40,577 bases of DNA. Source: Dehalococcoidales bacterium. Lineage in GTDB: Bacteria > Chloroflexota > Dehalococcoidia > Dehalococcoidales > E44-bin46. The first letter of the stretch is position 1; each line of letters opens with the position of its first letter. A program made the position numbers and the translations under genes. The DNA lies in contig DAOUFA010000080.1 in NCBI GenBank assembly GCA_034430355.1, positions 1 to 40,577 on the forward strand, given 5' to 3'. This document shows positions 10,292 to 36,119 of the stretch, one piece after another. Below the pieces are notes generated by a model. That model made no database searches. It was not told where the DNA came from and saw nothing but the letters and a program-made list of their open reading frames with translations.

Positions 10292-10542
10292 GACCTCCTC
10301 CTGTAAGCCTAATTGACCCTGAAGGAATTATATGCCAAAGCAAGTTTTGTGTCCATTGTGCTACCAAACCACTGGGGAAGTAGGCAGCTTTCTCGATTCC
10401 TTAACTGGCACAATCTGGCGTTTTGTGTTGGTGAATTTTATCACTGTAATGGAAATCGCTACTGGTGCGGTGGCATGCCTAAAACCCATTCCTATAGAAA
10501 AAGATAGAACCTCTGAACGAGAAGTCCTACCTATTAAACGAC

Positions 10543-10552
10543 TTGGCTCCCC
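10543..10552. repeat. 10-nt copy of the tRNA-Asn 3' end (TTGGCTCCCC); candidate distal att site
   Basis: It is identical to 21078-21087 in direct orientation. It coincides with the point where composition turns AT-rich. Confidence 0.5.
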
Positions 10553-10879
10553 CTGGTTGACTTATTCCGCAACTATAAGCTTGAAATCCAGTTTACCTTA
10601 GTAGAGTTAAAACGATTGTTTGAAGTATTCAATTTGTCTCCAATAACCCATGCTTGACCTTCCCCCCAATGAATAATTCTGAAAAACCCCCAAACAGCAC
10701 GAGGCGTGCAGAAAGGTGGAAAGTTTAAAAATTGAGAACCAGAACCGAGGGACGTTACTATTCCTTTTGCGTCAGGTCGGTTTGGCATATGGATAGTTGG
10801 AAGTTTATTCATCAATAATAACTTGATAAGCCCACTGGCTTTATGATTTATAGGTCAAACCTGTATAATACTATACGCT

Positions 10880-11527
10880 ATGAGTCTATTGTGGATTATT
10901 ATCATAGGTTTAGGCGCAAGTATTATCGGCGGTCTTATTTCGGGTCGTCTCGTGATACGAAAGGTTACACACGATACAAAGCGCCTATACGCAAGGCAAA
11001 TTAAAGAAGACTTCGAGATAATGTCTATTCTTCTATTTATGTCAGCCAGAAGCTTCTTAGAATTAATCGGGTATCACATTAAAGATTTTGACGCAAATCA
11101 ACCTAAAATGATTGAAAAAGTGAATCAAACCATAGTAAATCAAGTTCGAAAGGAATACCAACGTGAGTATGAACGAAGATTATTAAAATATGATTTAAGT
11201 AAACTCATATCTCAAGTTGAAGAGCTCGTGAAAGACATTACGAACGAGACTACTGGCTTTAATAGCTTTTTTAGTAAGTATCCCTTACACGCATCTTATT
11301 TCGACGCACTTTATCAAGCGTCCTCTGCGGTAGAACTGATAATTTTTTGGCGAAATCAGATACCAGAGCAAATTAACGAAGAGCAAAAGCGGATTTGTAT
11401 ATCTAATGTAACCTCTTACCTGCTAGATGTTCTCGATTGTCTACTCAAAGCTAGCTCGGAGATAAAGTATTATTGTAAGGCGAAAGCGTGGACGTGGCGG
11501 CTTATCGTGCCGACTACTCGAACTTGA
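10880..11527 (+). CDS. Hypothetical membrane-anchored protein (215 aa)
   Basis: An N-terminal TM helix (LLWIIIIGLGASIIGGLISG) is followed by a helical soluble domain. I recognise no family. TATAAT lies at 10864-10869, only about 10 nt before the ATG. Confidence 0.55.
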   Translation: MSLLWIIIIGLGASIIGGLISGRLVIRKVTHDTKRLYARQIKEDFEIMSILLFMSARSFLELIGYHIKDFDANQPKMIEKVNQTIVNQVRKEYQREYERRLLKYDLSKLISQVEELVKDITNETTGFNSFFSKYPLHASYFDALYQASSAVELIIFWRNQIPEQINEEQKRICISNVTSYLLDVLDCLLKASSEIKYYCKAKAWTWRLIVPTTRT

Positions 11528-11658
11528 CCATCTAATTATCCGCATAAGACCGATAGATACGTCATCCCATCAAGCAAATACATTGCATATACTCTATTGA
11601 CCTGCCCCCCGAAAAGGAGTCCAGGTAAAATGTTAGCAATATTAGATGTATGATTTTG

Positions 11659-12183
11659 TTATTCAGATATTCCCAGCTGTTGCTTTAATTCTGGTTTCAT
11701 CTTTTTTAAATCCAGTTGCCCCCTTGTGTAGGCCTCCTTAAGTCGTGCTTCTATATCTTTCCAACCCATTCGGTCAAATTCACCATGTCTGCTGAGTAAA
11801 TGGGCAAAATAGACAACATTGTTTATTGACAGATTGGAAACATTGCGATGATAATGGTTCATATCACGATAGGCTGTTTTGGCAGGCTTTTTTGAGTGTG
11901 TGAAGCTAAGTTCATCAAGATAGTTTGCACTTAGCAGGGCATAATCAAAATCATATTTTATGTCCTTACGTAAAGAAACGAAGGCAGCGACAATATCGAG
12001 CAAATTAGACTTATCGTCAGAAATCTCCCACAAAGAGAGAGCATTGTTATCCGCTCTTAAATCCCTGATAATACACGAAGGCAACTCACCTTCTTTAAGC
12101 CACGAAGGAAATTGTGTTCTCTCCCAATTAATGTTGCTATATATTGCACGTAGAAAGTAAGGCATTTCATTAATATGTTTCAA
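11659..12183 (-). CDS. Hypothetical protein, third gene of the three-gene operon (174 aa from TTG 12183; 168 aa if ATG 12165)
   Basis: The ORF overlaps or abuts the stop of the upstream gene at 12170-12172. No motif was recognised. Confidence 0.6.
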   Translation of the reverse strand: MKHINEMPYFLRAIYSNINWERTQFPSWLKEGELPSCIIRDLRADNNALSLWEISDDKSNLLDIVAAFVSLRKDIKYDFDYALLSANYLDELSFTHSKKPAKTAYRDMNHYHRNVSNLSINNVVYFAHLLSRHGEFDRMGWKDIEARLKEAYTRGQLDLKKMKPELKQQLGISE

Positions 12184-12967
12184 GCCCCTTAATTGCGACT
12201 TTAATATTATTCCTCAAAATTGGAACAGTATCTGTTTCAAAAAGCATACGGAGTTGAGGTAAAGCCCTATTGTCATCTAAGAATGAAAGCCCACTAACCG
12301 CTCCGTCACGAATAATTGCAGATTCATTTTTAATTGAGTCTATGAGAAGCTCATAGCGTTCATATTTAGTATTTTGGTCTTCTATTCTGCCTAATGCTTT
12401 TAGTGTTTCGGATATTATGTCATCATCAAGGATTTGTTTCCTGATTAGGTTATTAATAATGCGGACAGCAGGTTTCCCGTTAGCTCGAATCAGTCCATCA
12501 AGAGCATTCGTGAACTCATATGCGATATCCGTATCAAATTCTTCGTTACTGTAAGCGTCAAAAATGCTGATGGCACTTTGTTCTATTTGGAGGTCACTAG
12601 CTGATATTTGAGGGGTATAGGTAGAAACTGTATCGAAAACTTCATGATAGGAATGCGTTTGTATACGACTTTGTATTGTATAGAATCTACCGGCAAGTAA
12701 CATAATTCGTTCACAGATTGATTCATCAGGTAAAAATTTTTGACCAAAACCAGAGGCGGAAAATACTGTCGCGCTCTCTGCGTCTCTATTGAACGAATAC
12801 AAATAATTTCCACGGATTTCACTCGGCAAAAATATACCACTAACTTGCGTTGCTATTTGGGGATTCTCTTGAAACAGAAAATAGCAGTACCCACAATGCT
12901 TTATTTGAGGCAAATTAGTTACTTGATATTCATAAAGAGTAGAAGCTTCAAGTTCAGTAGTGAACAT
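12170..12967 (-). CDS. Hypothetical protein with C-terminal HEAT-like repeats, second gene of the operon (265 aa)
   Basis: The ATG lies 1 nt after the upstream stop. The C-terminal third (ETLKALGRIEDQN...RDGAVSGLSFLDDNRALPQLRMLFETD) looks like HEAT/PBS-lyase repeats. The N-terminal two thirds are unrecognised. Confidence 0.6.
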   Translation of the reverse strand: MFTTELEASTLYEYQVTNLPQIKHCGYCYFLFQENPQIATQVSGIFLPSEIRGNYLYSFNRDAESATVFSASGFGQKFLPDESICERIMLLAGRFYTIQSRIQTHSYHEVFDTVSTYTPQISASDLQIEQSAISIFDAYSNEEFDTDIAYEFTNALDGLIRANGKPAVRIINNLIRKQILDDDIISETLKALGRIEDQNTKYERYELLIDSIKNESAIIRDGAVSGLSFLDDNRALPQLRMLFETDTVPILRNNIKVAIKGLETY

Positions 12968-12968
12968 A

Positions 12969-13730
12969 CTATTTATCTCCGTCAGTCGATATTTGGTCTC
13001 CGAGTTTACTTAACTCTTGAAGCAATAGAGTTAGTTTCTCTTTTGAGAATATTTTCTTGTTAGACTGATGGGTACTAATATCAAGTTCCAAACGACTGGC
13101 AAAATAACTTCTTTTTTCTTGAATTACTTCCGACTTCTCTCCAACAAACAATCCAAATCCCATAGCGCGTACTGCGCTCCATTTGGAAAGCCTGTTAATA
13201 ATAAGGCCTGGTTCAACAGTTGATTGTATTGGGCGGTTGATTTGATAAAAGAAATCAGTTGAATTTTCAATATCTATTGTTACATGATGTAAAAGAGTAG
13301 ATAATTGCTTGTAGGCTGATGCTTTATTGTCATTGACAATTAAGGAAACTGAACCTAGAGCTATCCTATTAGTTTCTGGTACAGCATCTGAAGATAACCA
13401 ATCATTCATCATCTTAAAAAACTGACCTTTGGTTTCGAATAAAGAACCAAGAGTAGGAAATGAGGCAGTTTTCTGTTGTTGTTCTTGTGATGGTGATAAG
13501 GTCCAGTTAATCCTTAAAGGGTCAGACATGTGAGTGAGTGACCCAAGAACGACGGTACCCTCCTCAATAATTATATTAGCTCTCGGTTGAGAATCAACCT
13601 TCTCTGGTTTTTCTCCAGTAAGAGTTTCCCAAAGAGGTATTACCGTTTCGATGGGTTTGGCTCTGAACAACGTAAGACGAAGCGATTCTACTTGCCAATC
13701 AATCACTTTTTTACCCTTTAAGGAATTCAA
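12969..13730 (-). CDS. Hypothetical protein, first gene of the operon (253 aa from TTG 13730; GTG 13706 is an alternative)
   Basis: This is a long ORF in AT-rich DNA, where stop codons are frequent. It is tightly coupled to the next gene. No motif was recognised. Confidence 0.6.
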   Translation of the reverse strand: MNSLKGKKVIDWQVESLRLTLFRAKPIETVIPLWETLTGEKPEKVDSQPRANIIIEEGTVVLGSLTHMSDPLRINWTLSPSQEQQQKTASFPTLGSLFETKGQFFKMMNDWLSSDAVPETNRIALGSVSLIVNDNKASAYKQLSTLLHHVTIDIENSTDFFYQINRPIQSTVEPGLIINRLSKWSAVRAMGFGLFVGEKSEVIQEKRSYFASRLELDISTHQSNKKIFSKEKLTLLLQELSKLGDQISTDGDK

Positions 13731-13776
13731 TTATACAGTCTAATGCTTAGTTTTTCTGGTGTCAACATGATTAACC

Positions 13777-13785
13777 ATTATACCA
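13777..13785 (-). promoter_or_regulatory. Extended -10 element (TGgTATAAT) for the three-gene operon
   Basis: The minus strand reads TGGTATAAT about 45 nt upstream of the first start codon. The -35 is weak. Confidence 0.4.
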
Positions 13786-13907
13786 CATAGGTTGTAATAC
13801 TCAGATTCGTATTAATTAGGGTGGCACAAATGGTATTAATCTACATTTGAATTTTATCACCTTTAGTTCAATATGACAAATATTCAAATTCCTTGCTATT
13901 GACGGTA

Positions 13908-13936
13908 TTGACAAGCTATTTAGTTCTTAGTATATG
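13908..13936 (+). promoter_or_regulatory. Putative promoter facing the noncoding region (TTGACA, 17 nt, TATATG)
   Basis: The -35 is consensus and the spacer is 17 nt. It diverges from the operon promoter, and no convincing ORF lies downstream. Confidence 0.4.
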
Positions 13937-14188
13937 TACGTCGTCAGCATTTATGGCACAACCTGATAATGAGCACTTTAACCGGTTGAATTACCCCTGT
14001 CAAGCTCCCTCACTTTGTGGTTATGCTCTCTCTTGGCTTGTAGTGTTCTTCGCTTTGCCTCCTTTCTCCTGTTGATTATACCCTGACCCTGCCAGACCTT
14101 CCTAATGTTCCTAACCTATTGTGTCCAGTCTCAGGGGTTCACTCCGTAGAGTAATTTCTTGACACCATAAAAAGTGGACATAAAACGC

Positions 14189-14217
14189 TTTGGCTTTTGC
14201 AGAGAATGTGCTATACT
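14189..14217 (+). promoter_or_regulatory. Putative promoter with extended -10 (TTGGCT ... TGcTATACT)
   Basis: TGCTATACT lies at 14209-14217 and a TTGGCT -35-like hexamer lies 16 nt upstream. It immediately precedes the GC-enriched structured segment. Confidence 0.4.
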
Positions 14218-14223
14218 AATAGT

Positions 14224-14593
14224 AGTGGGGCAGTGCCCCGTAGAACATTAATAATTGAATAGGGTAAATGCAGAGCTGTTCCGAAGCCTAAAGACTCCTC
14301 ATATCGTTCTCGAAAGAGAACCGTAAAGAGGACTCCTTCAGGTTCCGGCAGATGATATGCACCAAGGCGAAACAGAGCATCGACAAGATTGAGGGCGGGC
14401 AAGAGAAATCTCCCCAAATTCAGTCTGGCACGGCCTCTGGCAGTCAAAGTGAGCCTCACCTGAATTTAGGAGCTCTGTCACCTGACAAAGACTATTAGGC
14501 TTTGTGGTGTTCTGCATTTATTATCAGTAGTAGCTTACTGATAAACAAAAAGGAGTATTTGAAGCCAATGGGCTTTGGGTTCTCCTTTTTTTA
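14224..14593 (+). ncRNA. Candidate structured noncoding RNA (or structured replication-origin region), class unknown
   Basis: The segment runs from a promoter to a terminator with no credible ORF, and its G+C is visibly higher than the surrounding island. Hand-found helices are GGGGC-agt-GCCCC (14227-14239), GTTCTC-GAAA-GAGAAC (14306-14321, extendable by CCTC/GAGG), AAATTCAG/CTGAATTT (14416-14423 with 14460-14467) and TTATCAGTA-n6-TACTGATAA (14521-14544). Confidence 0.35.
14550..14593 (+). terminator. Rho-independent terminator
   Basis: AAGGAG...AAGCC-aatg-GGCTT...CTCCTT forms a hairpin followed by T7. On the opposite strand it is also followed by TTTTTGTTT, so it may act in both directions. 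Confidence 0.55.
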
Positions 14594-14623
14594 TTTTATA
14601 TACGGTTCTTAAGAAGATTTGTG

Positions 14624-14800
14624 ATGCAATCGAAAAGCAAGAAAACTGTAATCGAACAAACCTACCGAGAGTCCGGTAGCGAAACTGAAGAGCTACGGGA
14701 TAATGATAGGCTGTCTAAGTTTTTCGAAATTTTAATGCAAATTGACCAGAGGCAAAAACGGGATGGGAAGAATAACCGAAGTTCAAATAGTCCCTATTAA
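14624..14800 (+). CDS. Possible 58-aa ORF (MQSKSKKTVIEQTYRESGSETEELRDNDRLSKFFEILMQIDQRQKRDGKNNRSSNSPY)
   Basis: It is below the ORF-track cut-off and begins just after the terminator. It overlaps the SpoVG-like start in another frame. The RBS is weak. Confidence 0.25.
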   Translation: MQSKSKKTVIEQTYRESGSETEELRDNDRLSKFFEILMQIDQRQKRDGKNNRSSNSPY

Positions 14801-15059
14801 GCCAAAGGATGGACTCATAGCTTTCGCGAGCTTTGTTTTGGACGACAGCCTATATTTAGGCTCTATTGGTATCGCTACAAGGCTTCAAGGGGGCTACCGG
14901 CTAATCTATCCTACCAAGCGAACTGGTAATAAGGATATAAACGTCTTCCATCCCATTAAAAAGGCATTCGCTGAAGCAGTGGAAGACGAAGTAGTAAAAC
15001 GACTTGAAGATGTAATGAATAAAGGCAATGATAGACACAATAGTATTAACCCTCAATGA
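14742..15059 (+). CDS. SpoVG-family nucleic-acid-binding protein (likely start ATG 14763)
   Basis: ITEVQIVPIKPKDGLIAFASFVLDDSLYLGSIGI...GGYRLIYPTKRT...NVFHPIKKAFAEAVEDEV follows the SpoVG pattern (ITDVRIRK..G.mKA.aSIt.D..fvvh.I.v....G.f.amPsrk......d.aHPI....r..i..av). Confidence 0.65.
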   Translation: MTRGKNGMGRITEVQIVPIKPKDGLIAFASFVLDDSLYLGSIGIATRLQGGYRLIYPTKRTGNKDINVFHPIKKAFAEAVEDEVVKRLEDVMNKGNDRHNSINPQ

Positions 15060-16161
15060 GAATAGCTTCACAATCGTTGAACATGATAAGTTCAGCCCTT
15101 CCACAGAGGGACTATATTCCTCTTCCTATTACCGGCTGGGCGGGCGTGCGAATCTAATCTGCAAGCAGAACCCGACTTCTAGGGAACTGGCAGCCGGCAT
15201 CTATAAGCCCAGGCTTTCGGCTACCAAGCGACTCAATAGACATCGTAACTTCGAGATTACCCTAAAGGTTGAGTTTTCAATCCCCAAGCTCCTATTCGGC
15301 AATAACTTTGACGAGCTAGAAGACGCCGATTTCCCCCTGGTCGTCTCACGGCTAAGAGAAAAGCTCAGGGACATGGGCGTTCTCGTGACAGAGCCGATTT
15401 TATCGAGCGCCCCTATATCCAGTATCCATTTCTCAAAGAACGTGCCCCTTGTTGACTACACGACGCCCTACACCTATTTGGAGAGACTGTCTAGGATTAA
15501 CCTTAACCAACGGCTAGACCTGAATCAAACGGACTTCCGGAACGAAGGGCACAGCCTGAAATTTCGGGCTAATTCTTTCGAGGTAGCTTTCTACGATAAG
15601 ATGAAGGACTTGAGCAAGGCGAAGATTAGCGAAAAACGTGCTGAAGAAACTGAGAACGTTATCCAGATGAAGCTGTTTGAAAAACTGGAAATCAGCAAAC
15701 CCTTCGAAGTCCTTAGAATGGAAGTAAGGCTAAACAAAAGGCAAAAGCTGAAGCAGGTCTTGAAGAATATCGGCATTGAGACAGAGCCTACGTTCCAATT
15801 CCTATTCAGAAAAGACATAGCTCAAAAGGTTCTTCTTCACTATATGGGTGTGATAGAGAAGGGCTATCCTTTGATTCTCTCATACGATTGCAAAGACGCC
15901 AAAGACTTCCTATCTGATTTCATAATCCATAACCCAAAAGCAGGGCTTAAAAAGGCAATACAGATGCTAGGTTTACGAGTCCTTATAGACCAAGTGGGCG
16001 TGCGAGAATTCAGGGAAATCACGAGAAAATACGGCAAGGCGAACTGGTATCGGCTAAACAAAGAGATGCAGTCTCTTAACTATCCCCAAAGTAAGGATGT
16101 GTTTATGACCTTACGGCAATGCCTAGAAGAATTCAAGCCCTTAAAGCTTATTGACTTTTAA
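15028..16161 (+). CDS. Replication initiation protein, rolling-circle type (filamentous-phage gene II / Phage_CRI-like)
   Basis: The N-terminus MIDTIVLTLNE... resembles the MIDMLVLRLPF start of Ff gene II proteins. The size is about 377 aa. The gene overlaps the SpoVG-like gene by 32 nt. Assignment is by eye only. Confidence 0.5.
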   Translation: MIDTIVLTLNENSFTIVEHDKFSPSTEGLYSSSYYRLGGRANLICKQNPTSRELAAGIYKPRLSATKRLNRHRNFEITLKVEFSIPKLLFGNNFDELEDADFPLVVSRLREKLRDMGVLVTEPILSSAPISSIHFSKNVPLVDYTTPYTYLERLSRINLNQRLDLNQTDFRNEGHSLKFRANSFEVAFYDKMKDLSKAKISEKRAEETENVIQMKLFEKLEISKPFEVLRMEVRLNKRQKLKQVLKNIGIETEPTFQFLFRKDIAQKVLLHYMGVIEKGYPLILSYDCKDAKDFLSDFIIHNPKAGLKKAIQMLGLRVLIDQVGVREFREITRKYGKANWYRLNKEMQSLNYPQSKDVFMTLRQCLEEFKPLKLIDF

Positions 16162-16179
16162 GAAAAAAGGTGTATAATA

Positions 16180-16395
16180 ATGTTAATCAATGTAAAAGGT
16201 AGATTTATGGAAGAGAAATATTACACACCTCAAGAAATTGCCTCTATTCTGAAAGTAGCTTATATGACGGTTTATCGCTGGATTCGAGCCGGTAAACTGG
16301 AAGCTTATCAGGTGCAGAAACAATACAGGATAAGAGAAGCCGACTTCAACAAGTTCATGGAAGCTAACAAAAAGGTAACAAGTAAAGGAAGCTAA
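16180..16395 (+). CDS. Excisionase-family / MerR-superfamily HTH DNA-binding protein (likely start ATG 16207)
   Basis: YYTPQEIASILKVAYMTVYRWIRAGKLEAYQVQKQYRIREADFNKFME is the classic helix-turn-helix_17/excisionase signature. Confidence 0.7.
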   Translation: MLINVKGRFMEEKYYTPQEIASILKVAYMTVYRWIRAGKLEAYQVQKQYRIREADFNKFMEANKKVTSKGS

Positions 16396-16396
16396 A

Positions 16397-18199
16397 ATGA
16401 ATAATAGCGATTCTATTCTCATGGAGAACGTAAAGAGGGGAATCGAGAAAGGAATAATTAGCCTTTCCGATAACGAGTCAAGAATAACCTATAAGTGCAG
16501 TCGTGAGTACTCCGTAAGCTTCAAGAATCCAGAAGAGAAGGTAAGAGCTTCCTATTTCGTTGAACTGGTTGAAGACTACCGCTATCCTCAAGAAAGAATC
16601 GGGCTTGAGGTTACCATTCCAAGAAGGACACCGGAAGACAGGGCTGATATTGTTATATTTGAAGATGACACACTGAAAAAGCCGTATCTTGTAGTGGAAT
16701 GCAAGAAAGATGGGATTTCAGATGCAGAATTCAAGCAGGCAATAGAGCAGGTATTCGGTAATGCTAACAGCCTAAGAGCAAAATTTGCCTCTGTAATTGC
16801 CGGAACAACCAGGACTGTCTTCGATGTGGCTGGTTTTACCCCAGGCGAAAGAGAAAAGAACGTAATCTCGGATATTCCTGTCAAATATGGTCAAACCCCT
16901 AAATACAGGTTCATAAAGGGCGAAAAGGATAAAGAGCTTAAGGTAGTCTTGAAGGAAGACCTTATCAGAACGCTTCAGAAGGCTCACGATACCGTATGGC
17001 AAGGGGGTAAACTAGCACCTACCACTGCTTTTGATGAAATCTCAAAGCTTTTGTTCTGCAAGCTTCAAGATGAAACGGAAAGCACCATTACCTCAACGGG
17101 AAAGCCCTACAAGTTCCAGGTGGGAACATACGAGACTGCAAACGAAGTATTTGACCGGATAAATAAGATTTACCAAGAAGCAAAACAAAAGGATGCCGAG
17201 GTCTTTAAGGAAGATATCAGGTTGGAACCGAAAATTGTTTACGCCGTTGTGGAACACTTGCAAAGTATCAACTTCAATGAGACTGACCTGGATGCAAAAG
17301 GGGTTGCCTTCGAGAAGTTCATGGAAGATTTCTTTAAGGGGAAAATGGGGCAGTTCTTTACGCCGAGAGAGCTGATTAGATTCTGTGTAAAGATGATGAA
17401 TCCTCAAACGAACCAACTGATATTAGACCCTGCTTGTGGCTCTGGTGGTTTCTTGCTTAATGCGATGGATTTAGTACGAGAGCAAGCCAAGAAAGAGTAT
17501 GGCGATGGCACTATTTCAGCTTATAGAATGTGGTATGACTTTGCCAGAGAAAACTTGTACGGCATAGATATTAACGACCAGATTGCTAGGGTATGCAAGA
17601 TGAACATGATTCTCCACGATGATGGTCATTCCAACGTTATTAGCGTTGACAGTCTAGTAGATGTAAACGAGATTAACCGAATTCACCCAAAGTTCAAAGA
17701 GAATGCTTTCGATTTAGTCCTGACTAACCCGCCCTTCGGAGCAACAGCAAAAGAGTCAGAAAAGCCTTATCTTAAGAATTACAATTTAGGCAAAGATAGG
17801 AAGACGCAGAAGACGGAGATACTATTTATTGAGCAATGCCTCAAATTCCTAAAGACAGGAACGGGCAAGCTAGCTATCGTCTTACCTGACGGTATCTTGA
17901 CCAATAGCTCTTTGCAATACGTGAGAGACTTCATAATGGAACGAACTCAAATTCTAGCTATTGTCTCTTTACCTCAATTTGCCTTTACCCATTTCGGAGC
18001 TGGTGTTAAAAGCTCCCTCGTATTCTTGCGAAAGAAAGACCTCAATGAAAGACCAGACAATTACCCTATCTTCATGGCTATCGCTGAGCACATTGGCTAT
18101 GACGCAACTGGTAGAAAAGAGCCTGTTAATGATTTAGATACGATTCATACCGAGTATCAAACATTCTTGGTAAATCAAAAGGACTATAAGGGCTGTTAG
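16397..18199 (+). CDS. N6-adenine DNA methyltransferase (gamma class, HsdM-like) with N-terminal PD-(D/E)xK HSDR_N-type domain
   Basis: Motif I is ILDPACGSGGFLL and motif IV is LVLTNPPFGA. The N-terminal 150 aa contain DRADIVIF...KPYLVVECKK, a D...ExK nuclease-like signature. Confidence 0.85.
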   Translation: MNNSDSILMENVKRGIEKGIISLSDNESRITYKCSREYSVSFKNPEEKVRASYFVELVEDYRYPQERIGLEVTIPRRTPEDRADIVIFEDDTLKKPYLVVECKKDGISDAEFKQAIEQVFGNANSLRAKFASVIAGTTRTVFDVAGFTPGEREKNVISDIPVKYGQTPKYRFIKGEKDKELKVVLKEDLIRTLQKAHDTVWQGGKLAPTTAFDEISKLLFCKLQDETESTITSTGKPYKFQVGTYETANEVFDRINKIYQEAKQKDAEVFKEDIRLEPKIVYAVVEHLQSINFNETDLDAKGVAFEKFMEDFFKGKMGQFFTPRELIRFCVKMMNPQTNQLILDPACGSGGFLLNAMDLVREQAKKEYGDGTISAYRMWYDFARENLYGIDINDQIARVCKMNMILHDDGHSNVISVDSLVDVNEINRIHPKFKENAFDLVLTNPPFGATAKESEKPYLKNYNLGKDRKTQKTEILFIEQCLKFLKTGTGKLAIVLPDGILTNSSLQYVRDFIMERTQILAIVSLPQFAFTHFGAGVKSSLVFLRKKDLNERPDNYPIFMAIAEHIGYDATGRKEPVNDLDTIHTEYQTFLVNQKDYKGC

Positions 18200-18208
18200 G
18201 CTGCTAGA

Positions 18209-19615
18209 ATGAAGTGCTTTAAGGTATTCTATGACGATATTGAAGGCAGACTGGATTGCTTCTTTTATCAGCCTGAATTAGTTCAACTAGAGCATAAAGT
18301 AAAAAGGATTACTGATAGAAAGCTGGGGGACTACATACTAGGCATTTCGGGCGGAGCTACTCCAAACAAGAATGAAAGCGAGAAGTACTATTCTGAATCC
18401 GGCATTCCGTTTTTGAGGGTGCAGAATGTTACCAGTGCAGGCTTGAGTCTCGAAAACTGTATATTCATCAACCAAGAAACGCACAACAACATGCTTAAGA
18501 GAAGCCAGGTAGAAGAAGGCAACCTGATTACTAAGATTACTGGCGTGGGAAGAATGGCTGTCTCTGCGGTTGCTCCACCAAGCTTTGAGGGGAACATTAA
18601 CCAGCACTTGGTTGTCATAAAGACGCAAAGCACTGAGGTAAGCAAAGTACTGGCAACATTCTTAAATTCTGATATTGGCGAAAGGTTAGCTTTTAGACGC
18701 TCAACCGGTGGCACAAGACCTGCGTTGAATTACGAGGCTTTAAAGACAATTCCTGTTGTATATAGACCTGAAATTGTTGAAATCATGGAGTCAGCTTATG
18801 AGCGCAAAAAACAAAAAGACGAGGAAGCCAAGAAGCTATTAGATTCCTTAAATGGCTTTGTTCTTGAACGTTTGGGGATAAGCTTGCCCGAAATTAATGA
18901 CAAGAGCTGTTTTGTTGTATGGAGTGATGATATAAAGGGGCGGAAGATTAATCCGCAAGCTTATACAGCAAAGCCCAAAGCAATCAGAAGTGCAATTGAA
19001 GGCTCTACATATCCAATTAAAAGACTCTCTGATATTGTAACTCAAAACATATCCGGAGAGTGGGGTGAAGACCCAGTTTTGGTAAAGAAGACAGATGGCC
19101 ATGTCTTATGCAGAGTCCTAAGGAATACTAATTTTGTTAATCAGTATAACCTAAATTTTGAGAACGTAGCGGAACGGCTTATTAGGAAAGACAAATACCA
19201 AAAGATTAGGTTAAAAAAGGGGGATATCTTAATCGAGAAATCAGGTGGTAGTCCAATACAGCCTGTTGGTAGAGTAGCATTGGTCGAGAGTACAAGTGAA
19301 GGATATGCTTTTAGCAATTTTGTTCAATTGATACGGATTAGTGAAGAGTGCATACCGCAATACTTATTCATCTTTTTGAAAGCAGTTTACGCCCTTAATT
19401 ATATGGAGTATTTACAGAATCAAACGACAGGAATAAAGAACCTGATAATGAGTGAGTATCTGTCAATTCCCATACCGATTCCTCCTCTAGAAGTTCAGAA
19501 AGTGATTGCAGACGAAGTTGAGTCAAGAATGCAGAAAGCAGAACAGCTACAAAAGGAAGCCGAACAAGAGGTCGAGAAAGCCAAAGCTGAGGTCGAAAAG
19601 ATAATACTTGGCTAG
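18209..19615 (+). CDS. Restriction-modification specificity subunit (HsdS-like, two target-recognition domains)
   Basis: There are two Methylase_S-like TRDs (…GIPFLRVQNV…, …ILIEKSGGSPIQPVGRVALV…) and a C-terminal coiled coil. The gene starts 10 nt after the methyltransferase gene. Confidence 0.85.
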   Translation: MKCFKVFYDDIEGRLDCFFYQPELVQLEHKVKRITDRKLGDYILGISGGATPNKNESEKYYSESGIPFLRVQNVTSAGLSLENCIFINQETHNNMLKRSQVEEGNLITKITGVGRMAVSAVAPPSFEGNINQHLVVIKTQSTEVSKVLATFLNSDIGERLAFRRSTGGTRPALNYEALKTIPVVYRPEIVEIMESAYERKKQKDEEAKKLLDSLNGFVLERLGISLPEINDKSCFVVWSDDIKGRKINPQAYTAKPKAIRSAIEGSTYPIKRLSDIVTQNISGEWGEDPVLVKKTDGHVLCRVLRNTNFVNQYNLNFENVAERLIRKDKYQKIRLKKGDILIEKSGGSPIQPVGRVALVESTSEGYAFSNFVQLIRISEECIPQYLFIFLKAVYALNYMEYLQNQTTGIKNLIMSEYLSIPIPIPPLEVQKVIADEVESRMQKAEQLQKEAEQEVEKAKAEVEKIILG

Positions 19616-19629
19616 GAGTTGAAGGTATT

Positions 19630-21093
19630 ATGACTAAAGCCGTGATTCTAGCACGTGTATCAACTGTAAGACAGGAAAAGGAAGGGTTGTCGCTGAAAGA
19701 CATTCAGCTTCCAGCTTTAAGAGAGTACGCCCAAAACAAAGAGTTAGCGGTTGAAAGAGAGTTCGTCTTTACTGAGAGTGCTGATTACAAGATAAGAAGA
19801 AAATTCGATGAAATGGTCGAGTATGTCAAAGTCAACAATGACATTAAGACCATTATCGCTTACCGAGTGGATAGGATAACCAGGAACTTCAGGGATGCAG
19901 TTCTGATTGACGAGCTACGTCTTAACCATGACAAGGAAATACACTTTGTTTATGACCGGCTGGTAATTAACAAAAACACAATGGGGAGGGACATTCAGGA
20001 CTGGGACTTAAAGGTATTCCTAGCCAAGCAATACATCAACCGGCTCAAAGAGGATGCCACTAATTCAGCCTCATACATGCTAAGGAATGGTTTACTGCCT
20101 GGCAAAGCGCCTTACGGCTACAAGAATGTGGCTCTAGAAGACAAAAAGAAGTGGGTCGTTACCGAGCCATTTGAAGCTAGAGTCGTTCAGAAAATGTATG
20201 AATGGTATGGCTCCGGTTGCTTTTCTATGCTGGAAGTAAGAAAGAAGCTGAAAGAAGACTTTGACATTGATTTTTCTAAAGGTTTCGTTGACTTCATTCT
20301 CAAGAATCCATTTTATTGTGGGACGATTCAGTATGACGGACAAAAGTATCCCCATAATTACGAGTGTATTATATCTAGAGAGCTATTCGACAAAGTTCAA
20401 CAGGTGAAAGCCGGCTATAACAAGAAGCACTTCAAATTCGCAGGTTTACCTTACCTCTATCGAGGGTTAATCAGGTGTGCTGATTGCGGTTGTATGATTA
20501 CACCGGAAAAGAAAAAAGGCAAGTATGTTTATTACCATTGCACTGAATATAACGGCAAGCATAATGCTAAGTGGCTAAGGGAAGAAGAACTAACCAAGCA
20601 GTTTGCCCAGCTATACAAATCATTACAGATTCCTGAAGATGTAATCGAAGAAATTACGGCTTCATTAAGGAAGTCCCATAAAGACAAAACACAGTTTCAT
20701 CGGACTATGCTTGAAGGCTATCAAAAGGAATACCAGAAATATGAGGCTCGCATTGAAGCCATGTATGAAGACAAACTGGACGGTAGTATTACTCAGAGCG
20801 ACTATAACAAAAAGCGTGAAGAATACCGGACAAAACAGAAGGAAATATCAGATAAGATTAGCAGGCTAGGCTTTGCTGATGAAGAGTATTATTTGACTTC
20901 AGAATATATATTACAGCTTGCTAATAGAGCCTATGAACTATTCATGAGTTCTGAAGCGGAAGAAAAACGGCAACTTTTAAAACTCACACTTCAGAACTTA
21001 AAATTAGAGGGCAAAAAGGTTGAATTTGAACTCGTAAAGCCCTTCGATAAGGTCTTCGCTTGCTCAAGTAGTCAAAGTTGGCTCCCCGAGTAG
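19630..21093 (+). CDS. Large serine recombinase (integrase)
   Basis: The resolvase-type catalytic N-terminus is AVILARVSTVRQEKEG...YRVDRITRN. A recombinase domain, a zinc ribbon (CADCGCMITPEKKKGKYVYYHC) and a coiled coil follow. The last 15 nt overlap tRNA-Asn. Confidence 0.9.
   Translation: MTKAVILARVSTVRQEKEGLSLKDIQLPALREYAQNKELAVEREFVFTESADYKIRRKFDEMVEYVKVNNDIKTIIAYRVDRITRNFRDAVLIDELRLNHDKEIHFVYDRLVINKNTMGRDIQDWDLKVFLAKQYINRLKEDATNSASYMLRNGLLPGKAPYGYKNVALEDKKKWVVTEPFEARVVQKMYEWYGSGCFSMLEVRKKLKEDFDIDFSKGFVDFILKNPFYCGTIQYDGQKYPHNYECIISRELFDKVQQVKAGYNKKHFKFAGLPYLYRGLIRCADCGCMITPEKKKGKYVYYHCTEYNGKHNAKWLREEELTKQFAQLYKSLQIPEDVIEEITASLRKSHKDKTQFHRTMLEGYQKEYQKYEARIEAMYEDKLDGSITQSDYNKKREEYRTKQKEISDKISRLGFADEEYYLTSEYILQLANRAYELFMSSEAEEKRQLLKLTLQNLKLEGKKVEFELVKPFDKVFACSSSQSWLPE
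21078..21090. repeat. att-like core at the tRNA-Asn 3' end (TTGGCTCCCCGAG)
   Basis: This is the reference copy of the repeats at 7980-7992 (13/13) and 10543-10552 (10/10). Confidence 0.5.
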
Positions 21094-21153
21094 GACTCGA
21101 ACCTACAACCTAGCGGTTAACAGCCGCCCACTCTACCATTGAGCTATCGGGGA
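21079..21153 (-). tRNA. tRNA-Asn (anticodon GTT), CCA encoded
   Basis: In the reverse complement the acceptor is TCCCCGA/TCGGGGA, the anticodon stem GGCGG/CCGCT, the loop CTGTTAA and the T-loop TTCGAGT. The 3' end is GCCA. Confidence 0.85.
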
Positions 21154-34514: not shown

Positions 34515-35813
34515 CTAGAAACCTTTAGGTGAGGTGATGCCCAAGTATTTCTCCATTAGTTCCATAGCACAGAAATCCCCACACATACTACAAGCCACCC
34601 CAGCCGAAGCATGCTTACTATGAACTTGACGAGACAGCTCAGGGTCTAAGGACAGCCTGGCTTGCTCCTGCCAATCAAGCTTCTTTCGTGCCAGAGACAT
34701 CCTCCTATCCCAGTCCTCAGCCCCGTTTACCCCTTTAACTATATCGCCAGCATGGGCGGCAATACGCGAGGCTATCACCCCTTGCCTCACATCTTCGGGG
34801 TCTGGTAGAGAAAGATGCTCGGCTGGCGTCACATAGCACAGAAAATCGGTACCGGCAGCGGCAGCGATAGCCCCACCTATAGCCCCGGTGATATGGTCAT
34901 AGCCAGCGGCAATATCAGTCACCAGTGGACCTAACACATAGAAAGGAGCCCCCTTGCAGATAGCCTTCTCTAACTGAACATTAGCCTCAATCTGGTTCAA
35001 GGGTAAGTGCCCCGGACCCTCAACCATTGCCTGAACTCCAGCTTGCTGAGCCCGCTGTACCAATTCCCCGATAATAAGTAGTTCCTCAACCTGGGCTCGG
35101 TCGGTAGCATCAGCCAGGCTGCCAGGACGCATCCCATCGCCAAGGCTCAGCGTTACATCAAACTCTCTGGCTATCGCCAGCAGGCGGTCATAATACTCAT
35201 AGAGGGGATTTTCTCGCTCATTGTGAAGCATCCAGCCTATCAGGAAAGCACCCCCTCGAGATACAACATCGGTTACCCTTCCCTGCTGCTTAAGCTTGGC
35301 GATAGCCGACCGGGTTACACCACAATGCACGGTTACGAAATCAACGCCATCGCGAGCATGCTCTTCAATCCCAGCAAATAGGTCATCAACGGTCATTTTG
35401 ACTATAGCGCCACATCTATCTATCGCCTCAATCCCGGCCTGGTAAATAGGCACCGTTCCTATCGGTACCGAGCTTGCGGCAATAATGGCCCGCCGAATAG
35501 CCGATATATCGCCACCGGTGCTCAAGTCCATAACCGTATCTGCCCCTGAGTCGATAGCCACTCGCAACTTTTCCAGCTCGGTGTCAATATTACCAAAGTC
35601 AGAAGAGGTTCCGATATTGGCATTGACCTTGGTTTTGAGCCCCTGACCGATGCCACAGGGAACGAGGTTGGTGTGGTTGATATTAGCCGGAATTACTATC
35701 GTCCCTTTAGCCACACCCTGCCGAATGAACTCAGCATCCACCCCCTCCTGCTCAGCCACCAGCTTCATTGGCGATGAAATTATACCTTCTTTGGCCAATT
35801 CCAGTTGAGTCAT
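34515..35813 (-). CDS. thiC: Phosphomethylpyrimidine synthase ThiC
   Basis: The C-terminal cluster is CSMCGDFCA and the ThiC core is conserved. The start is placed at the second ATG ([10 protein letters not shown]), which has GGAGGTG 5 nt upstream. The track ORF begins at 35825. Confidence 0.93.
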
Positions 35814-35823
35814 ATCCACCTCC

Positions 35824-35870
35824 ATAAAAATAGACCAAGGGTTTCAGCGGTTAATACTAGACCCTTGGTC
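35824..35870 (-). terminator. Riboswitch expression-platform terminator
   Basis: The minus strand reads AGACCAAGGG-n20-CCCTTGGTCT followed by ATTTTTA. It lies between the TPP aptamer and the thiC RBS. Confidence 0.6.
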
Positions 35871-35877
35871 TAGGTTG

Positions 35878-35967
35878 CTACCGCTTCCCTACGCTCGTAT
35901 TACCAAGATCAGGTTCCCAGGGTTGGCATCAAATCGCCTCTCAGCTTTTGAGCACCCCTAGCGGTTT
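35878..35967 (-). promoter_or_regulatory. TPP (THI-box) riboswitch aptamer
   Basis: The minus strand reads CCGCTAGGGGTGCTC..GCTGAGAGG...AACCCTGGGAACCTGATCTTGGTAATACGAGCGTAGGGAAGCGG. The conserved GGGGUGC, CUGAGA, ACCUGAUCUGGAUAAUGCCAGCG-type and GGGA elements are all present, upstream of thiC. Confidence 0.88.
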
Positions 35968-36119
35968 GCCTATTAAGTTTACTTTATAATATTAACATAA
36001 GAGAATCTGAAACGCAAATGTACCTTGTTATTGGATTATCTACCTCACCCGCTTTATGCACCCTAAAAAATCTTTGATTTTTCAGGGAACCCGCTTTAGA
36101 TTTTTATTGGTAACCCTAT

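Follow-up and report, generated by a model that had tools for sequence, protein, structure and literature searches.

The 40,577-nucleotide (nt) stretch of contig DAOUFA010000080.1 from a Dehalococcoidales bacterium, hereafter the window, carries an integrated mobile element of ~10.5 kb. Between a leftward three-gene operon and the backbone genes of this element lies a locus that a preliminary description took to be either an unclassified structured RNA or a structured replication origin. The analysis reported here supports well a transcribed, structured RNA of ~370 nt on the + strand, at ~14190–14607. We favour, with a probability of about 0.55, that this RNA is a terminator-based, attenuator-type 5′ leader of the backbone operon. 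The backbone follows one order in more than 80 metagenomic loci: o59p (a conserved open reading frame (ORF) of 59 amino acids (aa)), a SpoVG-like gene, p377, an HTH_17 excisionase-like gene, variable cargo and a large serine recombinase. The locus is best read as the leader of this series, a role that the preliminary description overlooked.

Both ends of the locus have the features of a transcription unit (Table 1). The extended -10 proposed near 14209 (TGcTATACT) was called by the promoter scan as TTGGCT-16-TATACT with an upstream TG, at 14190–14217. In related leaders (n = 12; types A, B and C, described below), the promoter is kept by position in 12 of 12 and a TGnTAnAAT -10 in 11, the remaining one, L104, having TATAAT without the TG. 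The strong intrinsic terminator of the preliminary description was likewise recovered, at ~14547–14592. In the 12 leaders its dG lies between -17.6 and -28.3 kcal/mol and its U-tract counts 4–7, the first ATG, which is the start codon of o59p, comes 25–35 nt later (the gap in the window is 28 nt), and a box UUUAUAUACGG usually follows it. The scan of the 12 leaders found no conserved sigma-70-type promoter, judged by position, between terminator and o59p.

The structured core is confined to ~14190–14607. A second promoter that had been placed at 13908 (TTGACA-17-TATATG) has a -10 hexamer without the invariant final T and was not called by the scan. The ~650-nt transcript that would start there is not supported, and the 5′ third of the described locus (13908–14185) is neither conserved nor structured. 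Specifically, 13935–14215 shows no excess structure (z = +0.76) and has no counterpart in any related element, the similarity to homologues starting at ~14155. The G+C enrichment claimed for the core is real with respect to the left flank (0.47–0.50 at 14200–14500, 0.30–0.44 leftward) but not with respect to the downstream gene, which is equally rich (0.46–0.51). Similarly, the claim that the interval holds no credible ORF stands up to 14620 but not beyond, where the conserved 59-aa ORF (14621–14800) follows the terminator. Just 5′ of the leader -35, at 14160–14185, a block TTGACACYATAAAAA…GGGCGCAAAAC is common to the window and several leader-bearing elements (L001, L024, L106); possible roles for it are those of an operator or of a second promoter.

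Folding of 14222–14595 gives a minimum free energy of -131 kcal/mol, with z = -5.0 against shuffled sequence. The opposite strand likewise folds far better than its shuffles, as expected of a sequence built of helices. Homologues of the same type, which we call type A, stand at the same place in six further metagenomic elements (L001, L024, L104, L107, L109, L112), L096 being a more distant, truncated relative. The six and the window were aligned (seven sequences, alignment A7) and folded jointly with RNAalifold. In the resulting consensus, a 5′ hairpin and the unpaired linker precede a four-way junction closed by P1, and the P5 hairpin and the terminator come after it (Table 1); standard pairs fill 94.8% of the alignment cells. 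G·U or U·G occupies 63 cells and A·C or C·A 15; on the grounds of this excess, the promoter and the U-tract of the terminator, the RNA is assigned to the + strand.

A covariation analysis of homologous regions had been proposed as a check on the RNA, and its outcome is favourable: two-sided compensatory change occurs at 17 of the 88 predicted pairs, versus 8.6±1.9 in column shuffles, none of 500 of which reaches 17, although the seven sequences are mutually related and the shuffle statistics therefore overstate the significance. As a control, sliding the structure by 1–3 columns gave 2–6 compensatory pairs. The changes fall in P2, P5 and the terminator; in P5, one pair changes from U-A to C-G and another from A-U to C-G. 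Furthermore, L024 and L109 are missing most of P3 and keep the helical frame, and in L109 the tip of P2 is swapped for an unrelated 7-bp helix, suggesting that helices rather than sequence are maintained. The conserved nucleotides of the type-A RNA lie mostly in helices, not in junctions. No ORF is kept in frame among the seven homologues; the longest stop-free runs vary in strand and frame, and L109 has none above 38 aa. An 82-aa ORF on the minus strand, the conservation of which had been named as an argument against an RNA, is broken or frame-shifted in the homologues.

The helices pointed out in the preliminary description are present in the sequence. The GGGGC/GCCCC hairpin is found at 14227–14239, the GTTCTC-GAAA-GAGAAC helix nested in CCTC/GAGG at 14298–14333 and the 9-bp palindrome TTATCAGTA/TACTGATAA at 14521–14544. 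The 8-bp pairing AAATTCAG/CTGAATTT also exists in the sequence, but it belongs to P3, the domain of variable length, and the homologues do not preserve it. A search of the whole window against Rfam 15 (4227 families) at gathering thresholds returned only tRNAs and one TPP riboswitch, all elsewhere; at E ≤ 10, the top match in 13700–14800 reached 20 bits, where the threshold is 45, and consisted of the terminator only, so that no relevant family matches the locus by either measure. The reading as an unclassified structured RNA is therefore upheld, by the conserved promoter and terminator, the covariation in seven homologues, the G·U asymmetry and the lack of a conserved ORF and of an Rfam match. 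Nothing was found in support of the guide-like role that had been suggested along with it.

Comparison with related elements shows leaders with shared ends and unrelated middles. Leader and o59p always share one strand, the leader lying directly upstream. Eleven of the 12 carry a 5′ hairpin that is constant in place and variable in sequence, a fixed distance of 25–33 nt separates the -10 from the linker, and types A, B and C share the linker consensus AUUAAWAAYUGAAUA, which is found at that position in leader-bearing loci only. From linker to terminator the sequence is unrelated between types, and the terminator itself is constant in position and wholly different in sequence in types B, C, D and E. 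Type B (L028, L029, L040, L111) is 300–470 nt long with z = -9.2 and contains 2–6 copies of CUGACC-N-AAYRGGAGGCG, which fold as GCU-GA-[stem-loop]-A-GGC hairpins, the final copy overlapping the 5′ arm of the terminator. Type-B leaders (L028 5118–5585, L029 4400–4835, L040 5128–5590, L111 2286–2595) are also seen to consist of duplicated modules with a period of ~70 nt, each comprising a CUGACC…GGAGGCG hairpin and a terminator-like hairpin. The core of type C (L106, L108) is different again, and L027 and L110 have a short leader of ~170 nt with a terminator at its end. Only L025 and L026 are without a leader, having instead ~100 nt of upstream sequence with a candidate promoter (read by eye). 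The type of core does not track similarity in o59p, the SpoVG-like protein or p377.

The attenuator-type leader is favoured because the scan for sigma-70-type sites showed no second, positionally conserved promoter before the operon, and because position and strand are constant before the first backbone gene and the terminator is kept through full turnover of the sequence. The layout of a promoter upstream and an intrinsic terminator right 5′ of the gene, on the same strand, is found in the 12 leaders and in the short ones of L027 and L110. From this arrangement we infer a mechanism in cis. The ~370-nt transcript would be the leader of o59p, the SpoVG-like gene, p377, the HTH_17 excisionase-like gene, the cargo and the large serine recombinase. 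By default, RNA polymerase would halt at the terminator, leaving the replication/excision module nearly silent, and read-through would occur when the 3′ strand of P4/P1, ~32 nt upstream, captures the 5′ arm of the terminator. This 3′ strand is a diverged duplicate of the terminator 3′ arm, and the pairings, 1:2/3:4 versus 2:3, correspond to those of classical attenuators and of the pT181 pre-emptor (PMC5703833). Stop or go would then depend on the state of folding of the core, a swappable module between constant ends. Candidates for the factor that sets this state include a small ligand, the SpoVG-like protein, o59p and another RNA; the SpoVG-like protein is named since SpoVG binds RNA in Listeria (Burke and Portnoy 2016, cited after PMC13123087).

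The sequence relations behind this scheme are as follows. Positions 14498–14522, i.e. the 3′ strands of P4 and P1, are a diverged direct repeat of 14571–14595, the terminator 3′ arm with its U-tract. Seven of the 12 leaders have the best complement of the terminator 5′ arm 30–37 nt upstream of that arm, and an eighth, L029, has it at a distance of 62 nt; in these eight it is always within the 3′ arm of a paralogous upstream hairpin. In type B, the alternative duplex is strong (-16 to -25 kcal/mol, z of -2 to -5).

Several points weigh against the leader as just described. In the type-A RNA of the window, the 2:3 duplex is weak (-10.8 kcal/mol, z = 0.36), and in transcripts cut before the terminator 3′ arm, thermodynamic folding retains the upstream 1:2 hairpins. 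The antiterminated state is thus a hypothetical one; the truncated folds suggest termination as the default, and read-through would need a factor that opens the core fold or prevents it. P1, P4 and the base of P3 are invariant in A7, so that the covariation, already drawn from related sequences, is silent there. The promoter scan covers sigma-70-type sites only, and the hosts are metagenome-assembled genomes (MAGs) of poorly studied phyla, in which weak promoters or those of other types may escape it. Lastly, a strong terminator suits a stand-alone small RNA equally well.

That last possibility deserves to be spelled out. The locus might encode an abundant, stand-alone RNA acting in trans, the terminator serving to set a high ratio of RNA to downstream protein, and the RNA binding or titrating a protein (e.g. 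the SpoVG-like one) or pairing with transcripts. Its logic would resemble that of protein-sponge RNAs, or the type III toxin–antitoxin order of promoter, RNA, terminator and gene. The discrete promoter-to-terminator unit with its stabilising 5′ hairpin and strongly folded core would fit, the 2–6 repeats of the type-B relatives recall RNAs with multiple protein-binding sites, and the RNA binding by SpoVG proteins in Listeria (PMC13123087) points the same way. However, no tandem repeats occur in the type-A RNA of the window (14200–14610). A ToxI-like RNA would have direct repeats of ~36 nt, then a terminator and a gene for a ToxN-family endoRNase; the downstream proteins have no ToxN/AbiQ-like or PADLOC match, nor was another known partner gene found. 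Moreover, a SpoVG-like gene is present in every element whereas the RNA is not (L025, L026), o59p similarity does not track core type, and the scan of the 12 leaders revealed no separate promoter for the operon. Taken together, we regard a stand-alone RNA as possible but rather unlikely. A reading in which an antisense countertranscript acts on the leader appears less probable still. In that case, the divergent core would be a determinant of copy control or incompatibility, allowing independent regulation at a shared tRNA site, by analogy with pT181 and pIP501. In agreement with it, the operon is closely preceded by the terminator, and the terminator by a complement resembling a pre-emptor (cf. 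PMC5703833), cores diverge sharply while p377 remains 72–88% identical, and related elements occur in tandem arrays (L003, L031, L037, L075). Such a reading calls for an antisense promoter, and no positionally conserved minus-strand promoter was found in the 12 leaders, the sole candidate being a weak TTGTTT-17-GATAAT inside P5 (by eye); it also casts p377 as a replication initiator, for which there is no Rep family match and a likeness in fold to unnamed viral proteins only.

The other reading in the preliminary description, a single-strand or double-strand origin used at the DNA level by a neighbouring rolling-circle Rep, hinges on p377, and it fared worst. This protein has 1812 homologues at E ≤ 0.001 in the protein database, none with a Pfam domain. 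Its AlphaFold (AF2) model (predicted local distance difference test (pLDDT) score 81) resembles four unnamed viral proteins of 326–382 aa in BFVD (template modelling (TM) score 0.43–0.55, probability 1.0) and, faintly, an Inoviridae protein named ‘GST REP’; an FYDK motif, read by eye, is invariant and presumably reminiscent of Rep_trans active sites. The BFVD matches include A0A345MP47, A0A345MVG1 and A0A345N4R7. These likenesses would suit an initiator, as would the hairpin followed by a conserved AT-rich block near the gene. Nevertheless, p377 has no match in Pfam, PHROGs, NCBIfam, PADLOC or PDB sequences, and no Rep_trans, HUH or other Rep is among the PDB fold matches listed, so that the Rep on which the origin was to depend is not supported. 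The AT-rich block (the linker), which is the sole block common to the leader types, is missing from L025, L027 and L110 despite 77–88% identity in p377. Furthermore, a promoter directly 5′ and a U-tract terminator directly 3′ mark a transcript, and the bias of 63 G·U to 15 A·C points to RNA as well; the region is G+C-rich, unlike an AT-rich unwinding element; and direct reading of 14222–14600 found no ssoA CS-6 motif (TAGCGT/A). An origin therefore seems to us very improbable.

A wider, more speculative proposal can be built on the attenuator-type leader. Together, the leaders may constitute one modular family of RNAs that serve as exchangeable sensors or specificity determinants, with a 5′ adapter and a terminator as output, and that gate the excision and replication of serine-recombinase elements of very broad host range through an element-encoded RNA-binding protein (SpoVG-like or o59p) or a new ligand-binding fold. 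Types A, B and C would share the adapter, i.e. the hairpin and AUUAAWAAYUGAAUA, and the variants D and E possibly belong here as well. We offer this with considerable doubt.

Searches with nhmmer, using single-sequence and profile queries, found close type-A relatives alone; phage and plasmid collections, searched by blastn with the locus, gave no match, and in viral contigs both an exact-pattern scan for a conserved 20-mer and a search for p377 were empty. Other candidates were considered and rejected. A leader peptide in the terminator loop was dismissed because, on reading the sequences, the frame of the conserved TTTATATACGG box differs between the window and L028. A CsrA-like sponge for GGA motifs does not fit, o59p being not CsrA-like and such motifs being few in type A. 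A generic ‘GA-internal-loop hairpin’ module was not enriched over shuffles, only the GCUGACC...GGAGGC copies of types B and C being recurrent. Finally, a miniature inverted-repeat transposable element (MITE) formed by the inverted ends of the core had no further copies in the available sequence.

Turning to the host, the element spans about 10540–21093 and is integrated at a tRNA-Asn gene by the large serine recombinase. The recombinase gene (19630–21093) forms the right end, its stop codon overlapping the 3′ end of tRNA-Asn(GTT) (21079–21153). The left end, at ~10536–10638, opens with a second copy of the 3′ end of tRNA-Asn and matches a left-end profile made from 11 related loci. Past the tRNA copy, the left-end sequence is conserved and reads as coding (…LPLKDLFINRELEFDYTLDDFKILYSNLNL in relatives); on this ground, the recombinase ORF probably crosses attP in the excised circle and gains a longer C-terminus, the integrated ORF ending early, at the tRNA. 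In several loci (L003, L031, L034, L037, L075), a second related element, whole or in fragments, is found next to the first, so that tandem arrays occupy one tRNA site. Those loci that are derived from genomes come from MAGs labelled Dehalococcoidia, Gammaproteobacteria, Alphaproteobacteria, Omnitrophota, Thermodesulfobacteriota and several phyla of the candidate phyla radiation (CPR). Literature searches found no description of this element family.

Table 1 Features of the leader locus and the adjoining backbone genes (window coordinates)
Feature	Position	Strand	Basis
Unconserved spacer with promoter-like sites for the leftward 253/265/174-aa operon; outside the RNA	13731–14185	.	Minus-strand promoter scan matches; related loci show no homology; no excess structure
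Sigma-70-type promoter with extended -10 (TTGGCT, 16 nt, TGcTATACT)	14190–14217	+	Promoter scan
5′-terminal hairpin GGGGC-AGU-GCCCC, a few nt past the likely transcription start	14227–14239	+	Seen in sequence
AU-rich linker ATTAATAATTGAATA, conserved, single-stranded	14247–14261	+	(Near-)invariant in leader types A, B and C
Type-A core, ~250-nt four-way junction	14266–14519	+	RNAalifold, seven sequences
P1, closing helix, AAAUGCAGAGC paired with GUUCUGCAUUU	14266–14276 with 14509–14519	+	RNAalifold
P2, three stacked helices with GAAA (GNRA) tip	14281–14348	+	Helices covary
P3, variable-length domain	14349–14484	+	RNAalifold
P4, short hairpin	14485–14505	+	RNAalifold
P5, hairpin UUAUCAGUA/UACUGAUAA, outside P1, between core and terminator	14521–14544	+	Two covarying pairs
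Intrinsic terminator, ~19-bp stem (dG -21 kcal/mol), then U7	14547–14592	+	Scan and folding
Conserved box TTTTATATACGGTT directly 3′ of the terminator	14594–14607	+	Kept across leader types
o59p, conserved 59-aa ORF, first gene past the terminator; overlaps the start of the SpoVG-like gene	14621–14800	+	tblastn
SpoVG-like gene	14742/14763–15059	+	
p377 (377 aa)	15028–16161	+	
HTH_17 excisionase-like protein	16180–16395	+	

Among the backbone genes, o59p is found by tblastn at the same position in dozens of loci with 30–83% identity, and has no family match. A hairpin CTACCGAGAGTCCGGTAG at 14662–14679 within its coding sequence is kept across leader types and was scanned as a minus-strand terminator-like site. 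The cargo in the window element includes a type I-like methyltransferase and a specificity subunit; across the family, cargo includes restriction-modification and other defence genes. Also inside the element, 10880–13730 contains a + strand ORF of 215 aa and the leftward operon of 253, 265 (HEAT repeats) and 174 aa; they gave no informative family or PADLOC match and are presumably cargo. Elsewhere in the window are a four-tRNA cluster (Val, Arg, Leu, Val; 1481–1813, - strand) and, unrelated to the leader RNA, the TPP riboswitch (35869–35969, - strand, 70 bits), which lies 5′ of a 436-aa ORF (34515–35825).

If the attenuator-type leader is true, an RNA switch before the excision and maintenance genes would be a control point for when such elements move. 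Its fixed ends and exchangeable folded core could reveal a new RNA fold, and the exchangeable-core design a new way for related elements to separate their regulation. Were the proposal of a modular family also true, type A would be a new riboswitch-like or protein-responsive class of RNA that controls mobile-element activation.

Parallels exist among known systems. In the plasmids pT181 and pIP501, a leader, a pre-emptor and a terminator are placed just 5′ of rep (PMC5703833). The present RNA agrees with the control regions of pT181 repC and pIP501 repR in having a structured leader of a few hundred nt, a terminator that stops a few tens of nt short of the first maintenance gene, an upstream segment that may pair with the terminator 5′ arm in the manner of the pre-emptor, and a control region that diverges while the downstream protein is conserved (PMC5703833). 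It differs in that no antisense promoter was found in the 12 leaders of its family, the host is an integrative, large-serine-recombinase element rather than a plasmid, the downstream protein is no recognised Rep, and the pT181 leader is far simpler than the large four-way junction of the core.

Transcriptional OFF riboswitches share with the type-A RNA a promoter-proximal, multi-helix junction closed by P1 and followed by an intrinsic terminator, and the possibility that the P1 3′ strand could alternatively pair with the terminator 5′ arm; in such riboswitches, the P1 3′ strand is also part of the antiterminator. Unlike them, type A has no Rfam match and no metabolic gene context, its core is exchanged wholesale among sister elements, and its conserved nucleotides are mostly helical, not junctional. 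Protein-dependent antitermination (BglG/SacY with its ribonucleic antiterminator (RAT), ANTAR targets, PyrR, HutP) offers a further parallel: the small two-tier hairpin seen in types B and C (GCU-GA-[stem-loop]-A-GGC) extends over the beginning of the terminator 5′ arm, as RAT and ANTAR sites do. This hairpin, however, is not evident in the type-A RNA of the window, and no CAT/PRD, ANTAR or PyrR protein was found in the element. A last comparison is with the prgQ leader of pCF10 (Qs RNA/IRS1 terminator), reportedly a ~380-nt structured RNA that runs from a promoter to a terminator, read-through of which expresses transfer and maintenance genes. No counterpart of the convergent Anti-Q RNA and peptide pheromones that pCF10 is said to use is visible in the window element; the succession of promoter, structured RNA of ~370 nt and terminator before mobile-element genes is the same. 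Leaders that control the maintenance module of a mobile element through a terminator are a known general kind, and what is new is the fold, the exchangeable-core design and the host element family.

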